From an uncultured Veillonellaceae bacterium (GTDB lineage: Bacteria; Bacillota; Negativicutes; UBA1444): a stretch of DNA of 64,000 nucleotides. The notes below the pieces were generated by a model, which saw only the letters and a list, made by a program, of their open reading frames with translations, ran no database searches and was not told where the DNA came from. The stretch is taken from positions 19,166-83,165 of the forward strand of contig CAZRLN010000001.1 of NCBI GenBank assembly GCA_964601085.1, written 5' to 3'. Position numbers and translations under genes: made by a program. Below are positions 36,973-63,233 of the stretch, in pieces. Numbering within the stretch: position 1 is the first letter of the stretch; every line of letters begins with the position of its first letter.

Positions 36973-38153
36973 ATCATTATTACGCCGATTTTCACATCCA
37001 TGTCGGAATCAGTGAATCCGGTCGCTGGGTGAAGATCCCCACATCCCGCCGCCTGACTGTCCGGACGATTCTGGAGACCGCGCTGCGGCGCAAGGGGATC
37101 GAAATTGTCGGAGTCGTCGATGCGCTGTCGCCCTGGGTGCAGGAAGACATCCAGCGCCTGGTGGATGAAGGCGGTCTGGTGCTGCAAAGCGGCGGCGGCT
37201 ATTTGTATCACAACGGAGTTTCCCTGATTCTTGGCGCTGAGATTGAGACTTGCGAGGAAGGCGGTGGCATGTGCCATTCGCTTTCCTATCTGCCGGATTT
37301 GGACTCCATGCGGGAATTTTCCCGGGAAATGTCGGGATACATCCGAAATATCGGCTTGAGTTCGCAAAACGCCCATTTGCCGTTTCGCCGCCTGGTGGAG
37401 ATTGCTGCGGCGCATGAAGCGCTGTTTGTGCCGGCGCATGCGTTTACCCCGCACAAAAGTTTGTTCGGTTCCTGCACCGATTCCTTGGCTGCAGTGCTGC
37501 CAACGGCGCTGCGATCCTGCATTGCCGCCGTTGAGCTGGGCTTGTCGGCGGATACGGCGATGGCCGATCGCATCAATGACCTGTGGGGCTTCGAGTACCT
37601 CACGAATTCGGATGCGCATTCTCCGGATAAGATCGGCCGGGAATATAACCGGATGGTTCTGGAGGCTTCTTCGTTTGCGGAATGCGCTCTGGCCTTCCGG
37701 CGGCGGCAGGGACGCTGCATCGCCGAAAATTACGGAATGGATCCCCGACTGGGGAAATACCACCATAATTGCTGCGATCACTGCGGTCTGGTCTATGACG
37801 GCAGTGATACAGCGGGAATTTGTCCGGACTGCGGCGGCGCCAAACTGGTAAAAGGCGTTTCCGAGCGGATCGGGGAGCTGGCCGATTTGCCGCCAGGCGC
37901 CCATCCCTCAACCCGGCCGGTCTATCATTACCATGTGCCGCTGCCGATGCTGCCTGGCTTGGGCGGAAAAACACTCGACAAGTTAGTGGCCGAACTGGGA
38001 ACGGAAATGGAACTGATTCATCAAGTTCCCTTGACGGAAATACATCGGGTAGGCGGAACGCGGGCGGCCCGGGCTTTTTCCGCCGTGCGTAGCGGCAGTG
38101 CAACCGTTCAGAGCGGCGGTGGCGGGATCTACGGACGAATCCGCCTTGATTGA
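36969..38153 (+). CDS. endonuclease Q-like PHP-domain protein (TIGR00375 family)
   Basis: ADFHIHVGIS PHP N-terminus and a C-terminal Zn finger CCDHCG...CPDCGG. Confidence 0.7.
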   Translation: MNHYYADFHIHVGISESGRWVKIPTSRRLTVRTILETALRRKGIEIVGVVDALSPWVQEDIQRLVDEGGLVLQSGGGYLYHNGVSLILGAEIETCEEGGGMCHSLSYLPDLDSMREFSREMSGYIRNIGLSSQNAHLPFRRLVEIAAAHEALFVPAHAFTPHKSLFGSCTDSLAAVLPTALRSCIAAVELGLSADTAMADRINDLWGFEYLTNSDAHSPDKIGREYNRMVLEASSFAECALAFRRRQGRCIAENYGMDPRLGKYHHNCCDHCGLVYDGSDTAGICPDCGGAKLVKGVSERIGELADLPPGAHPSTRPVYHYHVPLPMLPGLGGKTLDKLVAELGTEMELIHQVPLTEIHRVGGTRAARAFSAVRSGSATVQSGGGGIYGRIRLD

Positions 38154-38167
38154 CAGGAGTACGGCGT

Positions 38168-39055
38168 ATGGAAGAATTATTGCAGGAGTTTTTGCATTAT
38201 ATCGCGGTGGAACGGGGACTGGCGAGGAACACGATCCTTGCCTATGAACGGGATCTGCGGCAGTTTTTCAACTATTTGGCGGATAACGGAATTCAGGGCG
38301 TGGATCAACTGCAGCCGCCAATTTTGGTGAAATATCTTCGCAGCCTCCAAGCCGACGGTTTGCGGGCCACCTCCATATCCCGAAAATTGGCGGCAATTCG
38401 CAATTACTGTCAATATGCCGTTCGGGAACGGATATTGAAGAAAGATCCCTCCGGCATGATTGAATCCATGAAAACTCCGCTGCGGTTACCGAAAGTACTG
38501 GACGAAAAAGAAATCGCCGCATTGCTCGAACAGCCGGCTGAGCTGAAACCGTCCGGACTGCGCGACCGGGCAATGCTGGAACTGATGTACGCTACCGGAG
38601 TTCGGGTATCGGAACTGGTTTCACTGAAAGTGAACGATGTGAATATGGACATGGGGTACATCCGGTGTTTCGGTAAGGGTTCCAAGGAACGCATCGTCCC
38701 GATGGGCGAGATCGCCCAATCGGCGGTGCGGGACTACCTGAACCGGGGACGGCCGAAACTTTTGAGCCGTTCTCTGGAGGACACGCTGTTTCTCAACCGG
38801 CGCGGCCAAAAAATGACCCGGCAGGCTTTCTGGCTGATTATCCAGGCGAAAGCCCGGCAGGCCGGGATTGCCAAAACGGTGACGCCGCATATGCTGCGGC
38901 ATTCATTCGCCACCCATCTGCTCGACCATGGGGCCGATCTTCGCTCGGTTCAGGAAATGCTGGGACATGTAGATATCACGACCACACAGATTTATACGCA
39001 TGTGACCCGGACCCGGTTGAAGGAAGTCTACAACCGGACTCATCCCCGGGCATAG
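38168..39055 (+). CDS. xerD: site-specific tyrosine recombinase XerD
   Basis: N-terminal SAM-like domain and catalytic R...K...HxxR...Y with LGHVDITTTQIYTHV. Confidence 0.85.
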   Translation: MEELLQEFLHYIAVERGLARNTILAYERDLRQFFNYLADNGIQGVDQLQPPILVKYLRSLQADGLRATSISRKLAAIRNYCQYAVRERILKKDPSGMIESMKTPLRLPKVLDEKEIAALLEQPAELKPSGLRDRAMLELMYATGVRVSELVSLKVNDVNMDMGYIRCFGKGSKERIVPMGEIAQSAVRDYLNRGRPKLLSRSLEDTLFLNRRGQKMTRQAFWLIIQAKARQAGIAKTVTPHMLRHSFATHLLDHGADLRSVQEMLGHVDITTTQIYTHVTRTRLKEVYNRTHPRA

Positions 39056-40861: not shown

Positions 40862-41152
40862 ATGTCGAAAAAAGGTAATCGTTACAACGCGGATTTTAAG
40901 AAGAAAGTCATTGCCCACAGTCGTCAGCCTGGCAATACTATTGCCGGAACCGCCAAGCAGTTTGACATCAGCGATCAGACTCTGCGCAACTGGCTTAACC
41001 AACGCGAGGATCAGAAACATCTGGACCGACTGCGATTGATGCAATTGGAAAAGGAATTGGCGGAAGCAAAACGACGATTGGCGGACATGGAATTGACCAA
41101 TGAAATTTTGATCAAGGCCACCGCAATTTTTGCCGCTAATAAGCAAGCCTGA
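40862..41152 (+). mobile_element. IS3-family transposase OrfA (HTH + leucine-zipper) lacking an OrfB partner; IS remnant
   Basis: MSKKGNRYNADFKKKVIAHSRQ...QTLRNWLNQ HTH_Tnp_1 domain followed by a coiled-coil, ending ...IFAANKQA*. RBS GGAGGAG. No OrfB-like ORF or frameshift partner follows; a polysaccharide export gene starts 54 nt later. Confidence 0.65.
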
Positions 41153-41205
41153 TGTTATTGTCTGAATCAACCGAACACTTAGTGGACAGAATGGAGGGGA
41201 AGCCG

Positions 41206-41940
41206 ATGAAGAAGTGGTTTTTGCTACTGCTGATTTTGTTGATTATGCCGCACGCCGGCAGTTTGGCAGCCGAACTAAATATCCCTTATATTTTGCACCC
41301 TGGCGATGTGCTGTCGATTAATGTCGCCGGCTATCCCGAATTGAGCTTCCCGCAAACAGAAGGCCGTCAGGGCATTACAATCGGCCTGGATGGGAAAATA
41401 GCCTATCCGTTTTTAGGCGAGGTTTCCACGCAGGGATTGACTGCGGACCAATTGGCAACCTCCTTGGCGGAACGGCTCAAAGGAGTGTATGTAAACGCCG
41501 CTGTCAGCGTAAATATCATGCGGTATGGCAAAGAAAGGATTTATGTTTTGGGGGAAGTGAATCGACCCGGGTCCTACGAACTGGACAAAGTTCGGACCCT
41601 ATTGGACGCGATAGGCGCAGCCAGCGGCTGGCAAACCGATGCGGCGAAAACCAAGGTTTTTATTATTCGCCGTGATCAGAACGGCAAACCACCGATCAAG
41701 GTTAATTTGATGAGTTTGTTGGAAAATGGCGATACCAGCAAAAATCATCGGCTTCGCGAAGGCGATGTCGTATTTTTGGTTGGCTCAAACAAATTGAATT
41801 TGGCGACGGACCTTCTTCCCTTAGTTAATGCGGCGTATCAATTGGCGAAATTCAATCATCTGAATCCCAATAATAACCAAGCGTCGCAGACTTCTCAGAA
41901 CCCCAATAATCCTAATAATCCTGATCCTGGGTGTCACTGA
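41206..41940 (+). CDS. Wza-like polysaccharide export protein (OPX; Poly_export + SLBB domain), paralog 1
   Basis: Signal peptide MKKWFLLLLILLIMPHAGSLAAE, PGD(V/M)LSI Poly_export motif, and an SLBB domain. The C-terminus is low-complexity NPNNPNNPDPGCH. Confidence 0.8.
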   Translation: MKKWFLLLLILLIMPHAGSLAAELNIPYILHPGDVLSINVAGYPELSFPQTEGRQGITIGLDGKIAYPFLGEVSTQGLTADQLATSLAERLKGVYVNAAVSVNIMRYGKERIYVLGEVNRPGSYELDKVRTLLDAIGAASGWQTDAAKTKVFIIRRDQNGKPPIKVNLMSLLENGDTSKNHRLREGDVVFLVGSNKLNLATDLLPLVNAAYQLAKFNHLNPNNNQASQTSQNPNNPNNPDPGCH

Positions 41941-42023: not shown

Positions 42024-42725
42024 ATGAGAAAATGGTTGTTTCTGGTGATGATTCTGGTGATCCTGCCGCATACAGGCGTGCTGGCGGCTGAAACGAATCC
42101 GGCGCCCACGCCGGACGTTAACAATTCTAATGGCGCCTATATCCTTCATCCGGGCGACATGCTGTCGATCAATGTGTTTGGGTATCCGGAATTGAGTTTT
42201 CCCAATCAGGGCCATATGGAAGGACTGACGATTCGCCCGGACGGAAAACTGACCTATCCCTTTCTGGGGGAAATCGCGGCAAAAGGAATGACGGTAAAAG
42301 ATTTCGCCAAGCTTCTTTCGGAACAGTTGGGCGAGATCTACGTGAACCCGGTTCTCAGCGTGAACATTATGCGTTTTGGTACGGATCGGATCTATGTCTT
42401 GGGCGAAGTCAACCAACCGGGAGCGTATGAGCTGGATAAGAGCCGAAATCTTCTGGACGCGATTGGCGCGGCGCGCGGCTGGACCAAAGATGCGGCGAAA
42501 ACCAAGGTTTTCATTATCCGTAAAGATCAAAACGGCAAGCCGCCACTAAAGATCAATCTCATGTCTTTGCTCAAGGAAGGCGATACCAGCAAAAACTATC
42601 CCCTTCAACAGGGCGACGTTGTATATCTGACGGAAAATCATCGGATTGATTTTGCCAGAGATATTGTGCCGCTCATCAATGCCGCCTACATGATTACCTG
42701 GATTTCCGACAACAACAAACGGTGA
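42024..42725 (+). CDS. Wza-like polysaccharide export protein (OPX), paralog 2
   Basis: About 65% identical to paralog 1 over the core, with signal peptide MRKWLFLVMILVILPHTGVLAAE. Confidence 0.8.
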   Translation: MRKWLFLVMILVILPHTGVLAAETNPAPTPDVNNSNGAYILHPGDMLSINVFGYPELSFPNQGHMEGLTIRPDGKLTYPFLGEIAAKGMTVKDFAKLLSEQLGEIYVNPVLSVNIMRFGTDRIYVLGEVNQPGAYELDKSRNLLDAIGAARGWTKDAAKTKVFIIRKDQNGKPPLKINLMSLLKEGDTSKNYPLQQGDVVYLTENHRIDFARDIVPLINAAYMITWISDNNKR

Positions 42726-44839: not shown

Positions 44840-46753
44840 ATGAGAAAAGGCAGGCGAATTCAGGTGCGACAAAAAATAAACCGCTTATGCCTGATGGTTG
44901 CTGATGCAGCGGTTTTTGCCGTCAGCCCCTTCATAGCATTATATCTGCGAGTAGACGACATAGCCGGAAGCGTATATTTGGATAAAATCATCCATTATCT
45001 GCCGGTGCTTCTGGCGGTCCACTTTCTTGCCTTTTTTGCCCTCCAACTGTACCGTCGGGTATGGAAATACGCCGGTATCCATGAATTGCTGTCGATTGTC
45101 GGGGCGGCGACGCTGGCGCAATTGTCGTTGTACCTTCTGGCCCAGGCGGGCGGGATTGGTTTGCCGCGAAGCCTCTATATTCTCTGCGGGTTGTTGGAAG
45201 TTGCAATGATTGGCGGAATTCGGCTGTCGGTAAGAATTGCATCGAACAAATGCCTCGAATTTCTTGGCCGCCCCGAAAAAATTCTGATATTTGGCGCCGG
45301 TGATGTGGGATCTTGGATTGTAAAGGAAATCCGTGCCCATTATGGCGCCAACAAGAAAATTGTTGGATTCATCGATGATGACCCGAAGAAATTGGGTTGC
45401 ATACTGAATGGCGTAAAAGTGCTGGGCGGGCGTTATGAAATTGAAAAAATTGTCACGCAGCATGGAATCGATGAAATCATTGTCGCCATCCCATCCGCCC
45501 GCAGCATGCTAGTTCGGGAAATTGTTAAAATGTGCCGTAGTACGAAAAGTAAAGTCAAAATTGTCCCCGCACTTCATGAGGTCATTGACGGATTGGTTAC
45601 AATTCGCCAGTTGCGGGATGTCAATCTGGAAGATTTGTTGCACCGGGAACCGATCAAACTGGACATTGCCCTGATGCGAACGCAATTTCGGCAAAAACGA
45701 GTGCTGATCACCGGCGCCGGTGGCTCCATCGGATCGGAGATTTCCCGCCAGGTAGCCAAGATGTTACCGGCTAAGCTGTATTTGTTGGGCAAGAGTGAAA
45801 ACAATATTTTTGAAATTGAACGCGAATTGCAAAGGTTGTATCCACACCTGGAAATGGAGCCGATTATTGCGGATGTTCGTGATGAAAAGCGCATCCGCAG
45901 CATATTCGCCGAACGACGTCCGGAAATCATCTTTCACGCCGCCGCGCACAAACATGTTCCCCTGATGGAGAGCCAACCGGTAGAGGCGGTTCAGAATAAT
46001 ATTTTCGGGACGATGACTGTCGCCAGAGCCGCAATGGCCGTGGAAGCAGAATGTTTTGTCATGGTGTCCACGGACAAAGCCATTAATCCTTCCAGTGTCA
46101 TGGGGGTAACCAAGCGAGTGGCGGAGATGGTCATTTGTTCCATGAACGGGAAGAGCGCCACAAGATTCGCCGCGGTACGCTTCGGCAATGTGCTGGGCAG
46201 CAGGGGCAGCGTGGTTCAACTGTTTCGCAAACAAATCGCCCAAGGCGAGGCCATCACGATCACTCACCCCGACATGTGCCGCTACTTCATGACGATTCCG
46301 GAAGCTTCGCAACTGGTGCTCCAGGCCGGCGCCATGGCGAAGGGCGGCGAAGTGTTTGTCCTCGACATGGGGGAACCGATCAAGATTGTGGATTTGGCTT
46401 GCCACTTGATTGAGCTGACCGGTTTGGTTCCCCACAAGGACATAAAAATTGAATATACAGGCTTACGTCCCGGCGAAAAACTGTTTGAAGAGTTGTTGAC
46501 GGCGGAAGAGGGCAGCTCGGCAACAAAACATGAAAAAATATTTGTGACTAATTTGAAAAAAGTGGATGAAGAAAAGTTGTATGAAAGCCTGACGGTTTTG
46601 AGAAATATCGAGGATTCGGATAAAATCGTCAACCTTCTGGCAAAATTGGTTCCCACGTACCAAGGTTCCAGGGTACGGCGGCTGCGCCTGATCGAAGGCA
46701 AAGAAGCGCTGACGACGGTTGATGGGAAAATGGTTCCCGAGGAGGCGCTTTGA
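44840..46753 (+). CDS. membrane-anchored UDP-N-acetylglucosamine 4,6-dehydratase (CapD/PglF/WbpM family)
   Basis: 637 aa. Four N-terminal TM helices, then tandem Rossmann domains with GAGGSIGSE, and an SDR catalytic region. Confidence 0.85.
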   Translation: MRKGRRIQVRQKINRLCLMVADAAVFAVSPFIALYLRVDDIAGSVYLDKIIHYLPVLLAVHFLAFFALQLYRRVWKYAGIHELLSIVGAATLAQLSLYLLAQAGGIGLPRSLYILCGLLEVAMIGGIRLSVRIASNKCLEFLGRPEKILIFGAGDVGSWIVKEIRAHYGANKKIVGFIDDDPKKLGCILNGVKVLGGRYEIEKIVTQHGIDEIIVAIPSARSMLVREIVKMCRSTKSKVKIVPALHEVIDGLVTIRQLRDVNLEDLLHREPIKLDIALMRTQFRQKRVLITGAGGSIGSEISRQVAKMLPAKLYLLGKSENNIFEIERELQRLYPHLEMEPIIADVRDEKRIRSIFAERRPEIIFHAAAHKHVPLMESQPVEAVQNNIFGTMTVARAAMAVEAECFVMVSTDKAINPSSVMGVTKRVAEMVICSMNGKSATRFAAVRFGNVLGSRGSVVQLFRKQIAQGEAITITHPDMCRYFMTIPEASQLVLQAGAMAKGGEVFVLDMGEPIKIVDLACHLIELTGLVPHKDIKIEYTGLRPGEKLFEELLTAEEGSSATKHEKIFVTNLKKVDEEKLYESLTVLRNIEDSDKIVNLLAKLVPTYQGSRVRRLRLIEGKEALTTVDGKMVPEEAL

Positions 46754-51624: not shown

Positions 51625-52995
51625 GTGAACTTGCGGGAAAAATCGTCGTCAAAGGCCGGGCTGTACTTGATGATTACCGTTTTACTTGTTCTTGCGGGCT
51701 TTGTTTGGTGGAAAGAGAGCAATGCCTTTGGTGTGACGCATTCGAATCCGGCCGGAAAAAAAATGACGGCGTCCCGGAATCAGGTTGCGGGGGCCGGGGG
51801 AACGGAATCAGGTTCGGTCACGGATGTCATCAATGTGAAGTCGTTTGGCGCCCGCGGCGATGGGGAACACAACGATACGGCGGCGATCCAGGCCGCAATC
51901 GATGCCGCCGGAGGCAAAACAACAACCGTTTTCATCCCGCCGGGAGAATATAAAATTGATGCGGTTCAGTCACTGACGCTAAAAAGCGGCACTACCCTGC
52001 AAATGACCCCGGACACCATCCTGCGCGTGATTCCCAATTCTGCACCGCGTTACGCCTTGATCACAGTGAACGGCGTAGAGAATGTCCGGATTCTCGGCGG
52101 TATTCTGATCGGCGACCGCAAGCAACACTTCGGCATAACCGGCGAATGGGGCATGGGGATTCGCATTACCGGCGCGAAAAATATACTTGTTCAGGATACG
52201 ACCTGCAATGAATTTTGGGGTGACGGGTTTTATATCGGCGAAACGACGCCGGGCAAGCCAAGCGAAAATGTCCGCCTGGTGGGCATCAAGGCGGACCGGA
52301 ACCGCCGTCAGGGATTGTCGCTGATCAGCGGGAAAAACATTGAGATTATCAACGCCGGTTTTACAAATACCAATGGAACGGCTCCGGCGGCAGGAATAGA
52401 TATCGAACCCAACAACCCGCGTAATGTATTGGAAAATATTATCATCCGGGATTTAACCACGGCTGGAAATCAAGGCGCGGGAATTATCATCAGCTCGGGA
52501 GCTTTGGCCGGCACGACGAATCCTGTCGGCATCCGAATCCTGAATCACCGGGATGAAGGCAGCGATCGCGGTATGCAGATTTCCACCAAAGGCATCATTT
52601 CCGGTGAGATCCTTATCGATCATCCGGAATGGAATAACACCCGCCGGAATGCAATCGCCATCCAGGGGCATGATCATCGTTCTTTCCACATCCAGATCAA
52701 TGCCGCCGCGATAACCGACGTGAATCAGAGCCTCCCGGGGGCAGCAATCGACATATACAGCTTTAAAGGTAGCAGTCCCAATGAAAATGGCGGGATCGGC
52801 AATGTCAGCGTCAACAGCCCGGTGATCGCCGATACCAGGGTCAATCCCAAGACCATTGCAGCTTTCTATATTTGGGATATTCCCGGCCATCGGATTCGGC
52901 GGTTGTCAATCAGCAATCCGGTTTTAAAAGGAAATTTGACGATGCTTTCTCTCCAAAATAATATTCATGAGTATGTGAACTATACGCAAAAATAG
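51625..52995 (+). CDS. right-handed parallel beta-helix (pectate-lyase fold) protein with N-terminal signal-anchor
   Basis: GTG start after RBS GGAGGA. TM helix LYLMITVLLVLAGFVWW. The Pectate_lyase_3-like motif VKSFGARGDGEHNDTAAIQAAIDAAG is followed by repeated beta-helix coils. Confidence 0.7.
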   Translation: MNLREKSSSKAGLYLMITVLLVLAGFVWWKESNAFGVTHSNPAGKKMTASRNQVAGAGGTESGSVTDVINVKSFGARGDGEHNDTAAIQAAIDAAGGKTTTVFIPPGEYKIDAVQSLTLKSGTTLQMTPDTILRVIPNSAPRYALITVNGVENVRILGGILIGDRKQHFGITGEWGMGIRITGAKNILVQDTTCNEFWGDGFYIGETTPGKPSENVRLVGIKADRNRRQGLSLISGKNIEIINAGFTNTNGTAPAAGIDIEPNNPRNVLENIIIRDLTTAGNQGAGIIISSGALAGTTNPVGIRILNHRDEGSDRGMQISTKGIISGEILIDHPEWNNTRRNAIAIQGHDHRSFHIQINAAAITDVNQSLPGAAIDIYSFKGSSPNENGGIGNVSVNSPVIADTRVNPKTIAAFYIWDIPGHRIRRLSISNPVLKGNLTMLSLQNNIHEYVNYTQK

Positions 52996-56600: not shown

Positions 56601-57203
56601 GTGAAACGGATGTTTGACCTGGTCGCTTCCGCGACACTGTTGATCTTTCTGTTACCCGTACTGGCCGTTATTGCCGTTTTGGTTCGGTGGCGGCTCGGTT
56701 CTCCTGTAATTTTCAGAGCGATTCGTCCCGGTCTGCATGGCAAGCCGTTTTGCATGTATAAGTTTCGGACCATGACGAATGCCCGTGATAAAGCAGGGCG
56801 TCTATTGCCGGATAAGGAAAGAATCAATCGATTGGGCGAGCTGTTGAGACGGTCGAGTTTGGATGAATTGCCTCAATTGGTAAATGTGATCAAAGGAGAA
56901 ATGAGTCTGGTTGGCCCCCGGCCACTGGCGATGGAATATCTGCCGCTTTACAATATGGAACAAGCTCGGCGGCATCACGTCAAACCCGGGATTACCGGCT
57001 GGGCCCAGGTCAATGGGCGAGCCACGATTTCCTGGACCGAAAAGTTCAAATTGGATGTTTGGTATGTAGATAATCATTCCTTTTCGATCGATATGTTGAT
57101 CTTGTTTCTGACGGTGAAGAATGTAGTTTTTCAACACGGCGTGTGCAACACTGGCGAAACAAAGTATGGCAATTTTTTGGGATCAAATTATAAGGATGGA
57201 TGA
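56601..57203 (+). CDS. undecaprenyl-phosphate sugar-phosphotransferase, small PglC/WbaP-C-terminal type (priming enzyme)
   Basis: Single N-terminal TM helix plus the Bac_transf domain with DELPQL and SLVGPRP motifs. 200 aa, typical of PglC-like enzymes that transfer N-acyl-amino-dideoxyhexose-1-P. Confidence 0.85.
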   Translation: MKRMFDLVASATLLIFLLPVLAVIAVLVRWRLGSPVIFRAIRPGLHGKPFCMYKFRTMTNARDKAGRLLPDKERINRLGELLRRSSLDELPQLVNVIKGEMSLVGPRPLAMEYLPLYNMEQARRHHVKPGITGWAQVNGRATISWTEKFKLDVWYVDNHSFSIDMLILFLTVKNVVFQHGVCNTGETKYGNFLGSNYKDG

Positions 57204-57206
57204 GAA

Positions 57207-57779
57207 ATGTTTATCACGGCAGGGGATATTCGGTTGCGTCGGCCTGAACCCAAGGATGTGGACGAATTATATAGCTATCGTAATGACCCCGGAATTGTTG
57301 GCGCGTTATGCGGGTTTTCTAAAGGATACTCCCGGGCGGATATGTTGGATTGGGTCGAACGGCAACGCAAAAATCAGCAGGACCTTGTTTGGGTGATTGC
57401 TGATGCGGAAGACCGTTGCATTGGTCACTGCGGGTTATACAACATCGATTTCAGTGTTGGTACGGCTGAAGTCGCAATATGTATCGGCAAGGCTGATTTT
57501 CGAAAGGGGCAAAGCCGGGCCATTATGGAGGCGCTAAAAGAATATGGCTTTGGCTATCTGAATCTGCGGAAGATTCGGGGTGAAGTGCTTGGTACGAACA
57601 AATTGGCGATCAATTTCAACAAAAAATGCGGCATGAAAGAAGAAGGCATATTGCGCGAAGAGGAATATAGAGACGGACAGTATGTTGACGTGCATGTTTT
57701 TGGGTTGTACCGAAGGGACTGGAAGCCGATCTTGCCGGGAACTGACGAAAGTGGCCGAGTTTGTGAAACGAGGGGATGA
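57207..57779 (+). CDS. GNAT N-acetyltransferase (RimL/PseH-like), paralog 1
   Basis: Acetyltransf_3-type GNAT: LRRPEPKDVDELYSYRNDP...IGHCGL... Confidence 0.8.
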   Translation: MFITAGDIRLRRPEPKDVDELYSYRNDPGIVGALCGFSKGYSRADMLDWVERQRKNQQDLVWVIADAEDRCIGHCGLYNIDFSVGTAEVAICIGKADFRKGQSRAIMEALKEYGFGYLNLRKIRGEVLGTNKLAINFNKKCGMKEEGILREEEYRDGQYVDVHVFGLYRRDWKPILPGTDESGRVCETRG

Positions 57780-58333
57780 TCTTTTTGCTGATTGACAACG
57801 TCGTCCAGCTGCGGCGGCCTGAACCGGAAGATATTGAAGCGATGTATGACTACCGCAATGATCCTCGGATTGTCGCAACAATGGGGATGACTTCCCGCGG
57901 ATTTGCCCGTGCCGACGTTGCCGAATGGATTGACTCCCATCGAAAGAATAGGGATGATCTCGTTTGGACGATTGCCGATTTGAATGATCGGTGTATTGGC
58001 CACTGTGGACTATACAAGATTAATCCCCGAAACGGAGTTGCGGTGATCGGTATTTGCATTGGCGATGTTGGCCTTTGGGGCAAGGGGATCGGGACAACCG
58101 TAATTGATGGCGTGGTTACGTATGCCTTTCAACAAATGAATCTCCGGAAAATCAAGGCGGAAGTGCTCGCGACAAACATTTCAGCACGGAAGTTGTTCGA
58201 TAAACTCGGTTTCAAGACTGAGGCGATTTTGCGGGAATACAAATATCGAAACGGACAATATCTGGATTTTCATGTTTTGAGTGTATTTAGAAATGAGTGG
58301 GCACAACGGTGCGAACAATGGCAGCCAGAATAA
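57776..58333 (+). CDS. GNAT N-acetyltransferase (RimL/PseH-like), paralog 2
   Basis: About 55% identical to paralog 1 (LRRPEPEDIEAMYDYRNDP...IGHCGLYKIN). 4-nt overlap with the paralog 1 stop. Confidence 0.8.
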   Translation: MIFLLIDNVVQLRRPEPEDIEAMYDYRNDPRIVATMGMTSRGFARADVAEWIDSHRKNRDDLVWTIADLNDRCIGHCGLYKINPRNGVAVIGICIGDVGLWGKGIGTTVIDGVVTYAFQQMNLRKIKAEVLATNISARKLFDKLGFKTEAILREYKYRNGQYLDFHVLSVFRNEWAQRCEQWQPE

Positions 58334-59403
58334 AACCCTGGGAAGCTGGCAGCGAATTTCACTGGATGCCGCTGGCGCATGGTTCACGCAAACCCTATTA
58401 TTTAACGGCGGCAAATCTCTATTCATGCGGCCGGTCGGCATTGGCGGGAATCCTTCAATACGGCAGGGAAGTTTTGGGTTGGAAACGTTTGTGGATTCCT
58501 TCCTATTACTGTCCGGAAGTTGTTGAGACGATATTCGCCACAGGAATTTCAGCAGAATTTTACTTTGACTCTCCAATGGATCAGGTTGTCGTTCCAAGGG
58601 ATATTCTTCCTGGCGATGCAATCCTAATTGTCAATTTTTTTGGCGTGAAAAGTCGGGAAGAGTATGAGGAAATTTTTCGATTGGAGATTCCGGTAATCGA
58701 AGATCATAGTCATGATCCCTGGAGTCTTTGGGTAATGCAAAGCCAGGCCAGTTATCTGACTGCTTCGCTAAGGAAAACATTGCCAATTCCGGATGGCGGC
58801 GCGACTTGGTCGAATATCGGGTCGCATCTCCCGCCTCAACCAGCGCAGAAAGGTCAATCGAGCAACGTACCCGTTGAAAAAATTGAAGCAATGCTACTTA
58901 AAACCTTATATTTAGCCGGAAAGATTTCGGATAAGGAACGGTATCTCGAACTATTCAATTCCGCTAAACATAATCTTTGCCTTTCAACGGTTGATCAGCA
59001 GTGTGGCGAAGAACCGATCAGCGAACTTTCCAAAGGGATTTTGACCTCGTTTCCCTGGCGAGGTTGGCGCGCAAAACGGTTAGCGAATTACCGGCGTTTG
59101 CGACAACAGGTTCTGGAAAAATCGGGGATGAAAATATTGGAATCCAATGACCGGGATGTATGTCCTTTTATGATGACGGTGTTGTTTTCTACCCGAAAAA
59201 AACGGGATCAGATGAAAAAGAGATTAATTAAAAATTCCATTTATCCTGCCATAATTTGGCCGATTGAAGAAAGTCATGCTTGGGCAAGCGAACGGGCAAA
59301 AATATTGTCAGGGCAAATACTGTCCATTCACTGCGACGGCAGATACTCTCTGACCGATATGGACAAAATCGCTGCGATATTCAACCAAGGCATCGTTCCA
59401 TAA
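58318..59403 (+). CDS. divergent DegT/DnrJ/EryC1/StrS-like PLP-fold enzyme
   Basis: Fold-type I AAT pattern is recognisable: YSCGRSALAGIL...EVV...IPVIEDHSHDP...ASLRKTLPIPDGGA parallels the DegT nSGTaAL...DEVI...vIEDaAqAhG...fSFhptKnltxGEGG motifs. Many consensus residues are replaced. Start uncertain (GTG 58297 or ATG 58318), overlapping GNAT-2. Confidence 0.5.
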   Translation: MAARIKPWEAGSEFHWMPLAHGSRKPYYLTAANLYSCGRSALAGILQYGREVLGWKRLWIPSYYCPEVVETIFATGISAEFYFDSPMDQVVVPRDILPGDAILIVNFFGVKSREEYEEIFRLEIPVIEDHSHDPWSLWVMQSQASYLTASLRKTLPIPDGGATWSNIGSHLPPQPAQKGQSSNVPVEKIEAMLLKTLYLAGKISDKERYLELFNSAKHNLCLSTVDQQCGEEPISELSKGILTSFPWRGWRAKRLANYRRLRQQVLEKSGMKILESNDRDVCPFMMTVLFSTRKKRDQMKKRLIKNSIYPAIIWPIEESHAWASERAKILSGQILSIHCDGRYSLTDMDKIAAIFNQGIVP

Positions 59404-59427
59404 ATTGAACCAACAAGGATGGGAATT

Positions 59428-60498
59428 ATGGAATTTTTTAAAATGCTGGACGCTTCCAACAGGGAGGAATATGAAACTTGGCTGCAGGTTTGGTCAGAGT
59501 GGCCGGCGCGCGAAGTGTTCGCGCACCCGGAATATGTCAATCTGTTTGCCAGAAAATGTGATCGTTCGGTATGCGCCGTTCAGAAAAAAAGCGATGGATT
59601 GATCATCATGCCGATGATTATGCGACCAATTTCGGCGGAAATTTGGGCGGACGAGGAAAACCAGTCGTATGATATGGTTGCGCCTTATGGCTATGGTGGA
59701 CCGTATGTGTCAGGGCAATATAACTTGCAAGAATTTTGGCGCCACTTCCTGCGATGGGCGACTGAGAGAGGAATTATCGCCGCGTTTTTTCGCTTTTCTC
59801 CGTTTGCGGCCGATATTTCCGGATTAATTGATTCAGTGGATGTTACCGGCGGAAATGTGATCCGGTCTCTGACCGAAGGAAAGGATGGAATCTGGAACGA
59901 TTACAAGCATGCGGTTCGAACTTGTGTCCGATCGGCAGAAATGAACGAGGTTACAGTGGAATTTGATGAAACGGAAGAGCGATTGCCAAGTTTTATTCGC
60001 CTATATTACCAAACAATGCAACGATGCCATGCGGATCGGCAATATTTTTTCCCAGTGGAATTTTTTCATCGAATCGTTGCGAATTTGCGGGGACAGTATT
60101 TCTTTGCCTTTGCAATGTTTCAGGGGAAAGAGATTGCCGGGAAATTGGTTTTGTATTCGCAAGAACATCTGTATCCGTTTCTCGGCGGAGCTGATGAACG
60201 ATTTTTCAACTTAAATCCGAATCAACTTTTGGACACCAGGATTTTTTACTGGGGAGTTGAAAACGGGAAAAAAAGTTGTGTTCTGGGTGGCGGTTATGAC
60301 GGATACGATGGTGTTTTTCAGTATAAAAAAAAATTTGCTCCAACTGGTGTTGTCCCTTTTTCAGTAGGGAAACACATTCTTGATCCCACTGAATACAGAA
60401 AAATGTATGCAAAACGGCAAGAATATGAAATGAAACAGGGGCGGAATTGGAACAATGAAGGGATCTTCTTTCCCGAGTACCGGTCAAAAAGCGATTGA
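59428..60498 (+). CDS. FemAB-family / BioF2-like (Acetyltransf_6) transferase, paralog 1
   Basis: Family pattern LYYQTMQRCH...FF, NPNQLLDTRIFYWGVENGKK...LGGGYDGYDGVFQYKKKFAP (cf. FemAB/TIGR03019 PEP-CTERM-associated FemAB-related proteins). Alternative start at 59419. Confidence 0.7.
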   Translation: MEFFKMLDASNREEYETWLQVWSEWPAREVFAHPEYVNLFARKCDRSVCAVQKKSDGLIIMPMIMRPISAEIWADEENQSYDMVAPYGYGGPYVSGQYNLQEFWRHFLRWATERGIIAAFFRFSPFAADISGLIDSVDVTGGNVIRSLTEGKDGIWNDYKHAVRTCVRSAEMNEVTVEFDETEERLPSFIRLYYQTMQRCHADRQYFFPVEFFHRIVANLRGQYFFAFAMFQGKEIAGKLVLYSQEHLYPFLGGADERFFNLNPNQLLDTRIFYWGVENGKKSCVLGGGYDGYDGVFQYKKKFAPTGVVPFSVGKHILDPTEYRKMYAKRQEYEMKQGRNWNNEGIFFPEYRSKSD

Positions 60499-60535
60499 TA
60501 CAGGAATGTGGACCGTCGATGGAGGCTGTGCAAAT

Positions 60536-61600
60536 ATGTTTAAGATTTTGGATGCCGCCGATCATAATGATTATTCAAAATGGCTTCGGATATGGGAGAG
60601 TTGGCCATTACGAGAAGTCTTCGCGCATCCGGAGTATGTTAAGCTGTTCGCGCGAGGATGTGATCGCGCCGTGTGCGCGGTTCAGGAGAATGCCGACGGA
60701 ATGATTCTTCTGCCGTTGATTTTGCGTCCATTAGCAGCGGAACCTTGGGCGGGAAAAGATACTCCATATTTTGATGCAGTTGCGCCCTATGGCTTTGGCG
60801 GTCCATTTATCAACGGGCGATACGACATGGAGGAGTTTGGACGTCATTTCAAGGCTTGGGCGCAAAACGTCGGAATTGTGTCCGCGTTTTTCCGGTTGTC
60901 GCCATTTGCCGCAGATATTAGGAATATGGTCGATACCGTGGATGTGAGCGGCGGCAACGTGATCCGATCGCTATCGGAGGGGTATGACGAGATTTGGCGG
61001 GATTATAAACAACTGGTCCGCACTCATGTCAAAAAAGCAACCCAAAGCGGGGTAACCGCGGAGTTCGATGAAACCGGCGATAGCTTGCCGGCCTTTATCC
61101 GCTTGTATTACCGGACGATGCAACGATGCCATGCAGCGCAGCAATACTATTTTTCTGCAGATTTTTTCCGAAAAATCACAACGCGTCTGAAGGGGCAGTA
61201 CTTCCTTGCCAAGGCCAAGTATAAAGAGGAAGTGATCGCAGCGTACATTGTGCTGGTATCGCAGGAAAGCATTTATTATTATCTTGCCGGATCGAATGAA
61301 AATTTCTTTCACCTCAGACCCAATCAGTTTTTAACCAATGCCGTATTCCAATGGGGGATCGACCACGGAAAGAAATGGTGTATTCTAGGGGGCGGATATG
61401 AGGGGTATGATGGTGTGTTTCAATATAAAAAAGCGTTTGCACCCGCAGGAGTAGTTCCCTTTTTGGTTGGCAAACACATTTATTATCCGTCGGAGTATCA
61501 AGATTTCTGTGAAAAGCGAAAAGCGCATGATCTTCAAAATGGATTGAGCTGGATTACCAATGATTCCTTTTTCCCAGCCTATCGAACTAAGAATGATTGA
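60536..61600 (+). CDS. FemAB-family / BioF2-like (Acetyltransf_6) transferase, paralog 2
   Basis: About 60% identical to paralog 1 (FAHPEYVKLFARGCDRAVCAVQ..., RPNQFL...GGGYEGYDGVFQYKKAFAP). Confidence 0.7.
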   Translation: MFKILDAADHNDYSKWLRIWESWPLREVFAHPEYVKLFARGCDRAVCAVQENADGMILLPLILRPLAAEPWAGKDTPYFDAVAPYGFGGPFINGRYDMEEFGRHFKAWAQNVGIVSAFFRLSPFAADIRNMVDTVDVSGGNVIRSLSEGYDEIWRDYKQLVRTHVKKATQSGVTAEFDETGDSLPAFIRLYYRTMQRCHAAQQYYFSADFFRKITTRLKGQYFLAKAKYKEEVIAAYIVLVSQESIYYYLAGSNENFFHLRPNQFLTNAVFQWGIDHGKKWCILGGGYEGYDGVFQYKKAFAPAGVVPFLVGKHIYYPSEYQDFCEKRKAHDLQNGLSWITNDSFFPAYRTKND

Positions 61601-61653: not shown

Positions 61654-62901
61654 ATGGCAATTCCGCAAAAACGTATCTGTCTTTCGCCGCCCCATATGAG
61701 CGGTTTCGAGCAGGAATATGTGTCGGATGCTTTTGCGTCAAACTGGATTGCTCCGTTGGGTCCCCACGTGGATGCCTTTGAAGCCGGAATTGCCAAGTAT
61801 GTCGGGTGCAAGGCGGCAGCAGCCCTGTGTTCAGGAACTGCGGCCATTCATCTGGCATTGAAATGCGCCGGTGTTCAAAAAGGCGACTGGGTATTTTGTT
61901 CCTCATTGACCTTCGCGGCGTCCGCCAATCCGATTCTGTATGAAGGAGCCCGGCCGGTCTTCATTGATTCGGAACCCGAGTCATGGAACATGTCGCCCAT
62001 CGCCTTGCGCAAGGCGATGGCGGATGCAAAAAGAGAGTGCAGACTTCCCAAAGCGGTGATTATTGTCAATTTGTATGGGCAAAGCGCCGATATGGATAAG
62101 TTGTTGCCAATCTGTGAAAGATATTGCGTTCCCGTTATTGAAGATGCGGCGGAATCCCTTGGCGCGACCTATCGGGGCAAAGCCAGCGGCACTTTTGGCA
62201 AATACGGCATGTTCTCTTTCAATGGCAATAAAATCATCACGACCTCGGGCGGCGGCATGCTCATATCGGACGATGTCGAGGCGATACAGAAAGCCCGGTT
62301 CTGGGCAACCCAGGCGCGTGACCCGGCCCGGCATTACCAGCACAGCGAGATTGGCTACAACTATCGCTTGAGTAATATCGCGGCGGCGATTGGCCGGGGA
62401 CAGTTGTGCGTATTGCCAGATCGCATAAAAAAAAGGCGCAAAATATTTGCGCGGTATTTTTCAGAACTGGAACGATATGATGGGCTTGAATTTATGCCTG
62501 AAGCCCCGTATGGACAGTGTAATCGCTGGTTGACAACGATGACGATCGATCCGGCCCGATCAAAAGTAACCGTCAACGAGGTGATGGATGCTTTGGCGGA
62601 AGAAGATATCGAATCCCGGCCTGTCTGGAAACCGTTGCACCTCCAACCGATTTTCGCCACATATCCTTACTATGCGCATGGCACGACGGAGAGTGTGTCG
62701 GACCGATTGTTTGAGCAGGGGATCTGTTTGCCGTCTGGCAGCAACATGACCGAAGAAGAGCAAGCGAGGGTGATCAAGGTGATTCAGGACTGCCTTGGGC
62801 ATCGCGAGGCAAGTTCCGTCGGATTTTTCTACGGCTCAAAGGGCGGAAACAGCCATTGGCTCAATAATGAGGCCGTTTTAGGCAATACATCGACAAATTG
62901 A
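61654..62901 (+). CDS. DegT/DnrJ/EryC1/StrS-family sugar aminotransferase (PglE/WecE/Per-like)
   Basis: Canonical motifs CSGTAAIHLALK, IVNLYGQSADMD, IEDAAESLGATYRGK and FSFNGNKIITTSGGGML (PLP Lys). RBS AAAGGAGTG. Confidence 0.9.
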   Translation: MAIPQKRICLSPPHMSGFEQEYVSDAFASNWIAPLGPHVDAFEAGIAKYVGCKAAAALCSGTAAIHLALKCAGVQKGDWVFCSSLTFAASANPILYEGARPVFIDSEPESWNMSPIALRKAMADAKRECRLPKAVIIVNLYGQSADMDKLLPICERYCVPVIEDAAESLGATYRGKASGTFGKYGMFSFNGNKIITTSGGGMLISDDVEAIQKARFWATQARDPARHYQHSEIGYNYRLSNIAAAIGRGQLCVLPDRIKKRRKIFARYFSELERYDGLEFMPEAPYGQCNRWLTTMTIDPARSKVTVNEVMDALAEEDIESRPVWKPLHLQPIFATYPYYAHGTTESVSDRLFEQGICLPSGSNMTEEEQARVIKVIQDCLGHREASSVGFFYGSKGGNSHWLNNEAVLGNTSTN

Positions 62902-63233
62902 CAACCATAACAAGATTCTTCTTTCCACATTACAGTTGCGGAAAAAAACAATTTTCCCAGGGAAGTTTCCAGCTCCAATCCTATTTGTTGCTGCAATTCC
63001 AGGAATGAATCGGTCTGAATTGTCAATCCTTCCGGAGAAATTTGCGAAGCTAGAACCTGGTTGCGAATATCAGGCTGATTTTTGGTGAACAAAATAGCAG
63101 GCAGGGATTTTTTCACTCTCGACCGACCTTCTTTTTTCCTTAATAAATGCGATATGCTTGCTCAAGCATAATACATTTTATTTATCATACCATATTGGGA
63201 ATCAAGTTTGAAGAAAATGGAGGATTGATTCAT

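Follow-up and report, generated by a model that had tools for sequence, protein, structure and literature searches.

Tandem Fem-Type Transferases in a Polysaccharide Locus of an Uncultured Veillonellaceae Bacterium: Predicted Aminoacylation of an Amino Sugar

Introduction

What is the function of two Fem-type transferases that are encoded in tandem in the middle of a polysaccharide locus? This question is raised by a stretch of 64,000 nucleotides (referred to as the window) from an uncultured Veillonellaceae bacterium (GenBank assembly GCA_964601085.1, contig CAZRLN010000001.1, positions 19,166 to 83,165). The two genes, here called fem1 and fem2, lie within a Wzx/Wzy-type polysaccharide locus, which is located on the + strand and extends from ~41 kb to the window end. 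An earlier note on the sequence had predicted that their products transfer amino acids from aminoacyl-tRNA to a sugar amine of the repeat unit. All parts of this interpretation that can be tested in silico held, and they are supported by sequence, structure prediction, and comparative genomics.

Judging from sequence comparisons and structure models, Fem1 and Fem2 probably catalyze the tRNA-dependent aminoacylation of a 4-amino-4,6-dideoxy-N-acetylhexosamine (HexNAc)-type sugar of a surface polysaccharide, with a GNAT capping the product. They are predicted to be cytoplasmic double-GNAT enzymes, which tailor a nucleotide sugar or a lipid-linked sugar and not peptidoglycan.

The Tandem Genes fem1 and fem2

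59428..60498, + strand: Fem1, Fem-type double-GNAT transferase, 356 amino acids (359 from the alternative ATG at 59419), ancestral-type paralog
60536..61600, + strand: Fem2, second Fem-type transferase, 354 amino acids, derived paralog (Y248 and A251 in strand beta4)

Mechanical detection of open reading frames (ORFs) gave two frames on the + strand at 59419-60498 (359 amino acids) and 60455-61600 (381 amino acids), in agreement with the tandem arrangement described before. For Fem1, the ATG at 59428 is the second ATG of the ORF and is preceded by an AAGGA sequence 8 nt upstream. Gene callers also start at this position in near-identical metagenome contigs, which results in a protein of 356 amino acids. 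For Fem2, the ATG at 60536 is the start common to the homologues and has a GGAGG sequence 10 nt upstream, resulting in 354 amino acids. Automatic calls in related contigs start at the upstream ATG at 60455, which leads to an overlap of 44 nt with fem1. This long form is probably due to a mis-called start, because the homologue alignment and the GGAGG site favor 60536.

The lengths reported earlier, 359 and 355 amino acids, need a small correction: the first fits the Fem1 ORF from 59419 (the start given, 59428, yields 356), and the second is off by one residue. Over 353 residues, Fem1 and Fem2 can be aligned without a gap and share 57% identity (pairwise BLASTP), so that the paralogy holds at a value slightly different from the ~60% estimated before. 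The motifs that had been quoted as a family pattern, LYYxTMQRCH, NPNQL/RPNQF, and GGGY(D/E)GYDGVFQYKK(K/A)FAP, were all found.

Family Assignment

Three profiles had been proposed for checking the family assignment. Against PF13480, Fem1 and Fem2 scored 56.9 and 58.3 bits and were well above the gathering cutoff of 22. PF02388 was matched with 30.9 and 43.1 bits (cutoff 24), the match being confined to the C-terminal third of the profile (positions ~300-394). The third profile, TIGR03019, has a cutoff of 260 bits and was matched with 19.3 and 30.8 bits, and the NCBIfam model for FemX (NF047883) gave 31.6 bits compared to a cutoff of 500. Because the Pfam thresholds are passed and the NCBIfam matches are weak, Fem1 and Fem2 are, at the level of sequence, members of the Fem/Acetyltransf_6 superfamily outside both curated equivalogs, FemX and TIGR03019. 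A neighborhood of the TIGR03019 type, i.e., an exosortase or a VimE-type CE4 deacetylase together with Wbp-pathway genes, was absent among the ~36 proteins covered by the scan (32.8-64 kb).

The family comprises 2,290 clusters (50% identity) at an E-value of 1e-30 or better and 12,858 clusters at 1e-3 or better. Fem1 and Fem2 belong to a distinct, large, and uncharacterized Fem subfamily, which is tied to the PglC/PglE/PglF sugar pathway.

Fold and Active Site

With Fem2 as single query, nothing relevant was matched among the PDB sequences. A family profile built from 39 diverse homologues (A1) matched FemX of Weissella viridescens (FemX_Wv) with an E-value of 2e-11 over residues 146-334, which correspond to GNAT domain 2. 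In this alignment, F304-K305 of FemX are paired with Y302-K303 of Fem1. The lysine K303 is invariant in 39 of 39 members and the residue before it is Y, F, or H across the family. In FemX, K305 is the sole reactive active-site residue, and its counterpart in DhpH-C, Lys329, is essential (PMC12945691).

The AlphaFold model (AF2) of Fem1 was obtained with a mean predicted local distance difference test score (pLDDT) of 94 and a predicted template modeling score (pTM) of 0.91. It consists of two GNAT domains in one chain and can be superposed on solved Fem structures. Foldseek listed FemX_Wv first, then Sba18 and Sbb17, followed by FemA, FemX of Staphylococcus aureus, and the C-domains of MprF. 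A relationship of the MprF/aminoacyl-phosphatidylglycerol synthase type (DUF2156), which calls for this C-domain as closest structural class together with a membrane flippase domain, was not found for the Fem proteins. The Fem-type fold and the catalytic lysine are thereby established.

Residues 160-178 of Fem1 are aligned to a lysine- and arginine-rich helix of FemX. In the family this segment contains on average 5.3 lysines and arginines with a net charge of +3.2, and R167 is invariant. The tRNA-binding coiled-coil or helical insertion, which the earlier note had suggested to look for, is missing, as there is no long helical hairpin in the Fem1 model. FemA and FemX of S. aureus have this insertion and FemX_Wv lacks it, hence it does not define the family. 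Due to its absence, Fem1 and Fem2 resemble the short FemX_Wv. Their length of 354-356 amino acids is also near that of FemX_Wv (335 amino acids), with the Fem enzymes of S. aureus having 400-420. Beyond the region that can be aligned to FemX, the family shares the invariant motifs AHPEY and PYGYGGP and a C-terminal FFPxYR tail, and on the basis of the alignment these presumably form an acceptor site unlike that of FemX.

Alternatively, Fem1 and Fem2 could be ordinary acyl-coenzyme A (CoA)-dependent tandem-GNAT N-acyltransferases, which attach an acetyl or short acyl group to the sugar amine and fill the role of PglD with another fold. The source annotations ("GNAT family N-acetyltransferase") and the name of the top Pfam match, an acetyltransferase domain, are in line with this. 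Furthermore, the position of a fem gene between PglC and PglE is, as generally known, the slot of the N-acetyltransferase in classical Campylobacter pgl loci. Tandem GNATs using CoA do exist, e.g., MshD, MAB_4324, clavulanate ORF14, and VipF, but they are found further down the structural match lists than the Fem enzymes. The fold is double-GNAT and not the left-handed beta-helix of PglD-type enzymes. A strict regular expression for the CoA-binding loop matched neither Fem protein, but as it failed on the two genuine GNATs next to them as well, it was not relied on. Altogether we consider an acyl-CoA-dependent reaction distinctly unlikely, and aminoacyl-tRNA is the likely donor of the Fem enzymes.

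The Amino-Sugar Branch Around the fem Genes

44840..46753, + strand: PglF/WbpM-like membrane-anchored UDP-HexNAc 4,6-dehydratase (PF02719, 394 bits; N-terminal CoA_binding_3 and PglD_N-like matches)
56601..57203, + strand: small PglC-like polyprenyl-phosphate sugar-phosphate transferase (Bac_transf; PF02397, 212 bits)
57207..57779, + strand: GNAT1 (Acetyltransf_3), best NCBIfam match PseH, under cutoff; 49% identical to GNAT2; candidate N-acetyl capping enzyme
57776..58333, + strand: GNAT2 (Acetyltransf_3), best NCBIfam match PseH, under cutoff; candidate N-acetyl capping enzyme
58318..59403 (ORF 58297-59403), + strand: divergent DegT-type aminotransferase-fold protein, 361 amino acids, motifs VIEDHSHD and ASLRK
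61654..62901, + strand: PglE/LegC-like nucleotide-sugar 4-aminotransferase (DegT; PF01041, 325 bits; TIGR04181, 373 bits, cutoff 420)

The genes of the operon are ordered as PglC-like, GNAT, GNAT, aminotransferase-fold protein, Fem1, Fem2, and PglE-like, with the PglF-like gene located upstream. All neighbors described before, two GNATs and a DegT-like protein in front of the fem genes and a DegT protein behind them, were located (ORFs 57207-57779, 57776-58333, 58297-59403, and 61654-62901). The 4,6-dehydratase, the 4-aminotransferase, and the small phosphoglycosyl transferase of a bacillosamine-type pathway are co-located in the window. The PglF-like enzyme would make the 4-keto-6-deoxy substrate for the PglE-like aminotransferase, which in turn would make the sugar amine.

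The protein encoded between GNAT2 and Fem1 has no Pfam or NCBIfam match. Its family (Unk368) comprises at least 1052 homologues, and no Pfam domain was found among the 120 listed. In the family alignment (A3), H130, H132, D133, S150, R152, and K153 are invariant and form the motifs EDHxHD and SLRK. The AF2 model (pLDDT 87) has WlaRG, NtdA, QdtB, PseC, and WecE as top Foldseek matches. Because these are nucleotide-sugar aminotransferases, the label "DegT-like" given earlier is right at the level of the fold, although Pfam yields no hit. According to the model, the family appears to be a branch of the DegT-type sugar aminotransferases that is strongly diverged and has no name. A second sugar amine may be the product of this protein, or it may edit the attached residue. 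An alpha-epimerization of the aminoacyl group is speculation, but would be appealing in view of the D-alanyl and D-allo-threonyl groups of O-antigens.

At its 3′ end, the PglE-like gene is overlapped by ~73 nt by a convergent gene for a PilZ-domain protein of 95 amino acids (62829-63116, - strand), and over this stretch the PglE-like protein is extended at its C terminus by ~30 amino acids. The PilZ gene may encode a cyclic di-GMP-responsive regulator of the polysaccharide locus.

Proposed Route

In the proposed route, the PglF-like and the PglE-like enzymes would first convert UDP-HexNAc to UDP-2-acetamido-4-amino-2,4,6-trideoxyhexose. A Fem enzyme would then take up aminoacyl-tRNA, whose acceptor stem would be gripped by the basic helix of GNAT domain 2 and whose aminoacyl-A76 would be held by the invariant aromatic-lysine pair (Y302-K303). 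By transfer of the aminoacyl group to the free sugar amine, an amide would be made and a new free alpha-amine left. In the third step, the second paralog would extend the product to a dipeptide, or it would aminoacylate a second amine, possibly provided by the aminotransferase-fold protein. One of the small GNATs would acetylate the terminal alpha-amine. Finally, the PglC-like transferase would start the repeat unit by transferring this sugar, either finished or still as a precursor, to undecaprenyl phosphate. The identity of the amino acid used and the order of the steps are inferred here and not observed.

Related Loci and Fusion Proteins

The search for related loci was seeded with a closer homologue set (A2). 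The nearest genomes are metagenome-assembled genomes (MAGs) of Negativicutes and "Veillonellaceae." In at least seven other phyla, Fem relatives adjoin PglC-, PglE-, or PglF-like genes. The most constant neighbor of the subfamily is a PglC-like gene, which was found at a distance of no more than 10 kb from the fem gene in 22 of the 26 distinct loci; for a PglE-like gene, this number is ~15. A recurring cassette encodes a PglC-like protein, a GNAT (~267 amino acids), a short DegT-like protein, a Fem protein, and a PglE-like protein, in some cases followed by a PglF-like protein, often with overlapping start and stop codons. It is present in Shewanella, Bryobacterales, Thermoguttaceae, Longimicrobium, and Chloroflexota. 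Among the genes listed with Pfam families in the cassettes of Shewanella, Bryobacterales, and Thermoguttaceae, no PglD-type acetyltransferase was found, which leaves Fem and GNAT as sole candidates for the acylation of the 4-amine in these three.

As a full account of the window locus, a simple replacement of PglD by Fem was considered and dropped, since a PglD-like gene lies beyond the window end. It still suits the Shewanella, Bryobacterales, and Thermoguttaceae cassettes.

A further alternative is that Fem1 and Fem2 are peptidoglycan cross-bridge enzymes (FemABX/MurM function), which were placed in the polysaccharide locus by chance. The PF02388 match, some public records of the family as "methicillin resistance protein," and the Firmicutes-related host lineage would agree with such a role. 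However, the fem genes lie inside one co-oriented operon, which reaches from the PglC-like to the PglE-like gene. Members of the subfamily from Acidobacteriota, Planctomycetota, Myxococcota, Gammaproteobacteria, Cyanobacteria, and Chloroflexota are always found in sugar-tailoring contexts. In addition, no similarity to FemX was detected in the sequence of the acceptor domain, and the NF047883 score is low. The peptidoglycan role was rejected on gene context and phyletic spread, and we regard it as very improbable.

Several relatives are fusion proteins. Fem-Fem fusions are P0276, P0324, P0334, and P0248, and P0297 (937 amino acids) is a PglD-Fem-Fem fusion. P0384 (1060 amino acids) is a Fem-aminotransferase-fold-Fem fusion with the same three parts as in the window, in another order. 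Furthermore, a Fem-ATP-grasp fusion (P0283, 717 amino acids) and a PglC-aminotransferase-fold fusion (P0162, 630 amino acids) were identified. Some of them could be artefacts of assembly or gene calling; it is from the number and the consistency of the fusions that we argue that the fused parts work together.

Origin and Division of Labor of the Two Paralogs

In a neighbor-joining tree, each tandem pair (from the window, the related loci L001 and L002, and two metagenome contigs) consists of one Fem1-type and one Fem2-type protein, and the single-copy relatives branch outside of the pairs. Based on these sequences, this points to a single old duplication with retention of both copies. Only two positions cleanly separate the types, P253 and G256 in Fem1 versus Y248 and A251 in Fem2, with the outgroups showing the Fem1 state. 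They are located in the beta4 strand, which is aligned to W253-Y254 and A257-G258 of FemX, and Y254 of FemX has previously been mutagenized (PDB 1XF8). These differences would fit a changed substrate specificity in Fem2.

A natural variant of the operon was found on a MAG contig (L003:2040-3818, corresponding to 57776-61600 of the window), whose flanking proteins are 94-96% identical to those of the window. It keeps both GNATs, a Fem2-type gene, and the PglE gene. As neither the aminotransferase-fold gene nor fem1 is present, these two genes behave as an add-on module with strain-level presence or absence. The paralogs may act in series, building a dipeptide, or in parallel on a second amine, with at least these two readings. 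The sequential assembly of a dipeptide that had been suggested before is one of them, and the Fem2-type copy occurs alone in this contig.

Weighing Donor and Acceptor

With regard to the acceptor, we lean toward the amine of the PglE product. It is also conceivable that the enzymes use aminoacyl-tRNA and act on another acceptor, i.e., a sugar hydroxyl (forming an ester), an undecaprenyl-pyrophosphate-linked glycan, or a protein-anchoring "linking sugar" as in the VimA system. FemX of S. aureus is named lipid II:glycine glycyltransferase and thus works on a lipid-linked precursor; MprF-type relatives are generally known to form esters; and a protein-linking sugar is the product of VimA (PMC7468200). 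Across phyla, the subfamily is tied most tightly to the PglC-like membrane enzyme and not to an aminotransferase, and in Myxococcota PglC-Fem pairs occur with no aminotransferase in the vicinity. A different amine might also come from the additional aminotransferase-fold protein. Nevertheless, a PglE-like gene follows fem2 in the same operon of the window. We take a different acceptor to be unlikely.

Several observations weigh against the aminoacylation of the 4-amine by Fem1 and Fem2. The Myxococcota often show a bare PglC-Fem pair with no aminotransferase within 10 kb. The sequence similarity to FemX covers GNAT domain 2 only, with no detectable match for the acceptor-binding domain 1; the NCBIfam scores for FemX and TIGR03019 are far under the cutoffs; and with pI values of 5.9 and 7.8 the Fem proteins are not basic as a whole. 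Public records describe the members of the subfamily as "GNAT family N-acetyltransferase" or "CelD/BcsL." No dedicated tRNA gene, and indeed no tRNA gene at all, is present within the window. Genes for a PglD-like protein, carrier proteins, an AMP-ligase, and a formyltransferase-like protein are located just beyond it. With two GNATs, two Fem proteins, the PglD-like, and the formyltransferase-like protein, the acyl-transfer enzymes outnumber the obvious amines, and PglD or a PseH-like GNAT could acetylate the 4-amine instead. Moreover, the L003 contig, with both GNATs and only the Fem2-type gene, does not fit a simple scheme of one cap for one Fem.

The Myxococcota pairs were found at L026:7314-9053 and in L006, L007, L016, and L021. 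In L026 an ATP-grasp gene is located nearby on the opposite strand. The spore-coat (Exo) locus of Myxococcus xanthus, which has acetyltransferase-like and aminotransferase genes and a glycine-containing glycan, may be a characterized relative of these pairs, which we treat as a lead only.

On balance, the transfer of an amino acid to a sugar amine, as put forward in the earlier note, is supported. It has gained the invariant K303 and an amino-sugar context that recurs across phyla, and donor and acceptor are assigned with the graded confidence given above.

A wider and more doubtful reading is that these genes form a widespread unnamed cassette, which would assemble short peptides as side chains of bacillosamine-type sugars in surface polysaccharides, with aminoacyl-tRNA as direct source. 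Its parts would be the PglC-like transferase, one to three Fem-type enzymes, the divergent pyridoxal phosphate (PLP)-dependent aminotransferase-fold partner, and the GNAT cap. By analogy to FemX, FemA, and FemB on lipid II, the tandem or fused Fem modules would work in series. The PLP partner would modify the residue once it is attached, e.g., by alpha-epimerization of an L-aminoacyl group.

The Remaining Polysaccharide Locus

The other genes of the locus are the following, in order and on the + strand where a strand is given.

41152-41940 and 42024-42725, + strand: two tandem Wza-like export genes (Poly_export and SLBB), short with 262 and 233 amino acids, at the head of the locus
Following these, + strand: a Wzz-like protein, then a tyrosine-kinase-like ATPase
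After the PglF-like gene, + strand: Wzx, glycosyltransferase of family 2 (GT2), Wzy, glycosyltransferase of family 4 (GT4), and a beta-helix protein, in this order
51694-52995: the right-handed beta-helix (pectate-lyase-like) protein, conserved in L001, L002, and L004
Between the beta-helix and the PglC-like gene, + strand: WbpO-like dehydrogenase, WbpP-like epimerase, and GT4
After the convergent PilZ gene, near the window end: a further GT4

The beta-helix protein may be a polysaccharide-modifying or depolymerizing enzyme. On the near-identical metagenome contigs L029-L032, the locus continues after the last GT4 (L029:6896-10437). Past the window end, a PglD-like hexapeptide acetyltransferase, a carrier protein of 77 amino acids, an AMP-binding ligase, a formyltransferase-like protein, and a second carrier protein are encoded there, and they possibly form an acyl-carrier-dependent N-acylation module of the same locus.

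The guanine-cytosine (GC) content amounts to ~0.56-0.58 over 1-40 kb compared to 0.46-0.52 across 40-64 kb. It is 0.46-0.47 at 58-62 kb, with the minimum (0.46) at the fem genes. Directly upstream of the drop, a gene for a XerD-like integrase (38150-39055) was found. Loci for variable surface glycans that are exchanged horizontally typically show such a drop. PADLOC gave no match in the window and nothing points to a role in defense.

Significance

Groups such as N-acetyl-glycyl, -alanyl, -seryl, and -threonyl on 3- or 4-amino-6-deoxy sugars are recurrent and immunodominant in O-antigens and capsules (PMC3210612; PMC7685785). If the favored reading is true, the translation machinery feeds another major envelope pathway beyond peptidoglycan bridges and aminoacyl-lipids. 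To our knowledge, the enzymes adding such aminoacyl groups are mostly unassigned. Genomes could then be used to predict amino-acid-decorated glycans by means of an easily recognized marker next to PglC-like genes, and a handle for glycoengineering would result, e.g., a Fem cassette in place of pglD in the pgl systems of Escherichia coli. Undescribed chemistry is also hinted at by the Fem modules, which occur in tandem or fused, and by the aminotransferase-fold family, which has no name. An epimerization by the PLP partner, if true, would explain the N-acetyl-D-alanyl and D-allo-threonyl groups of O-antigens, for which we know of no established biosynthetic origin. The finding offers a concrete explanation, open to testing, of how bacterial surface glycans may come to be decorated with amino acids.

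Comparison With Known Systems

FemX of W. viridescens, a UDP-MurNAc-pentapeptide:L-alanine transferase (PDB 1NE9, 4II9), shares 13-14% identity with the Fem proteins, and its domain 1 cannot be aligned. It has no counterpart of the AHPEY, PYGYGGP, and FFPxYR motifs and belongs to a murein context, in contrast to the sugar-tailoring context of Fem1 and Fem2.

PglD of Campylobacter and PglB/PglB2 of Neisseria acylate N4 of UDP-4-amino-4,6-dideoxy-N-acetylglucosamine. These systems share the inferred step and the PglC/PglE/PglF neighborhood with the Fem proteins, and in several phyla a fem gene is located at the place of pglD. However, PglD is a left-handed beta-helix enzyme using acetyl-CoA and PglB2 has an ATP-grasp domain, whereas the Fem fold is unrelated to both. 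Moreover, the organism of the window also has a PglD-like gene.

In the type B flagellin locus of Clostridioides difficile, the FemAB-like gene CDR20291_0244 lies beside an ATP-grasp ligase and a sugar aminotransferase, with a peptidylamido sugar as product (PMC5207246). By locus content, this pairing parallels the Fem-ATP-grasp fusion P0283. Its target is a protein O-glycan instead of a Wzy polysaccharide, and mutants of the gene were not obtainable.

Literature searches on PF13480 with polysaccharide or on Fem with bacillosamine returned nothing relevant. The modification is nevertheless less uncharted than the description as poorly characterized in the earlier note implied, as VimA, Orf11, and Sba18/Sbb17 are precedents. 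Orf11 of the BD-12 pathway glycylates an amino sugar using Gly-tRNA (PMC12945691). Fem-like enzymes are thus able to aminoacylate amino sugars from aminoacyl-tRNA, and the structures of Sba18 and Sbb17 (PDB 9WQY, 9WQW, and 9WQX), which contain the bound amino sugar streptothrisamine and were deposited under the name of aminoacyl-tRNA-dependent peptide synthases, lend support to this. These three enzymes differ from Fem1 and Fem2 in acting on an antibiotic intermediate of Streptomyces, in their length of ~285 amino acids, in sharing only ~13% identity, and in having no link to a polyprenyl-phosphate glycan.

The closest functional analogue of Fem1 and Fem2 is VimA, a FemAB-superfamily protein, which matches TIGR03019 and belongs to the Wbp/Vim pathway. 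Genetic evidence shows that VimA decides whether serine or glycine is amide-linked to the amino sugar. VimA is paired with the deacetylase VimE and acts on the 2-amine of a 2,3-diamino uronic acid of the Wbp pathway. In contrast, the partners of Fem1 and Fem2 are PglC-, PglE-, and PglF-like enzymes and the aminotransferase-fold protein; no deacetylase was seen in the scan of 32.8-64 kb, and their TIGR03019 scores stay below the cutoff. When VimA was swapped between Porphyromonas gingivalis and Tannerella forsythia, serine was changed to glycine at the 2-amine of the linking sugar of the surface glycan (PMC7468200).

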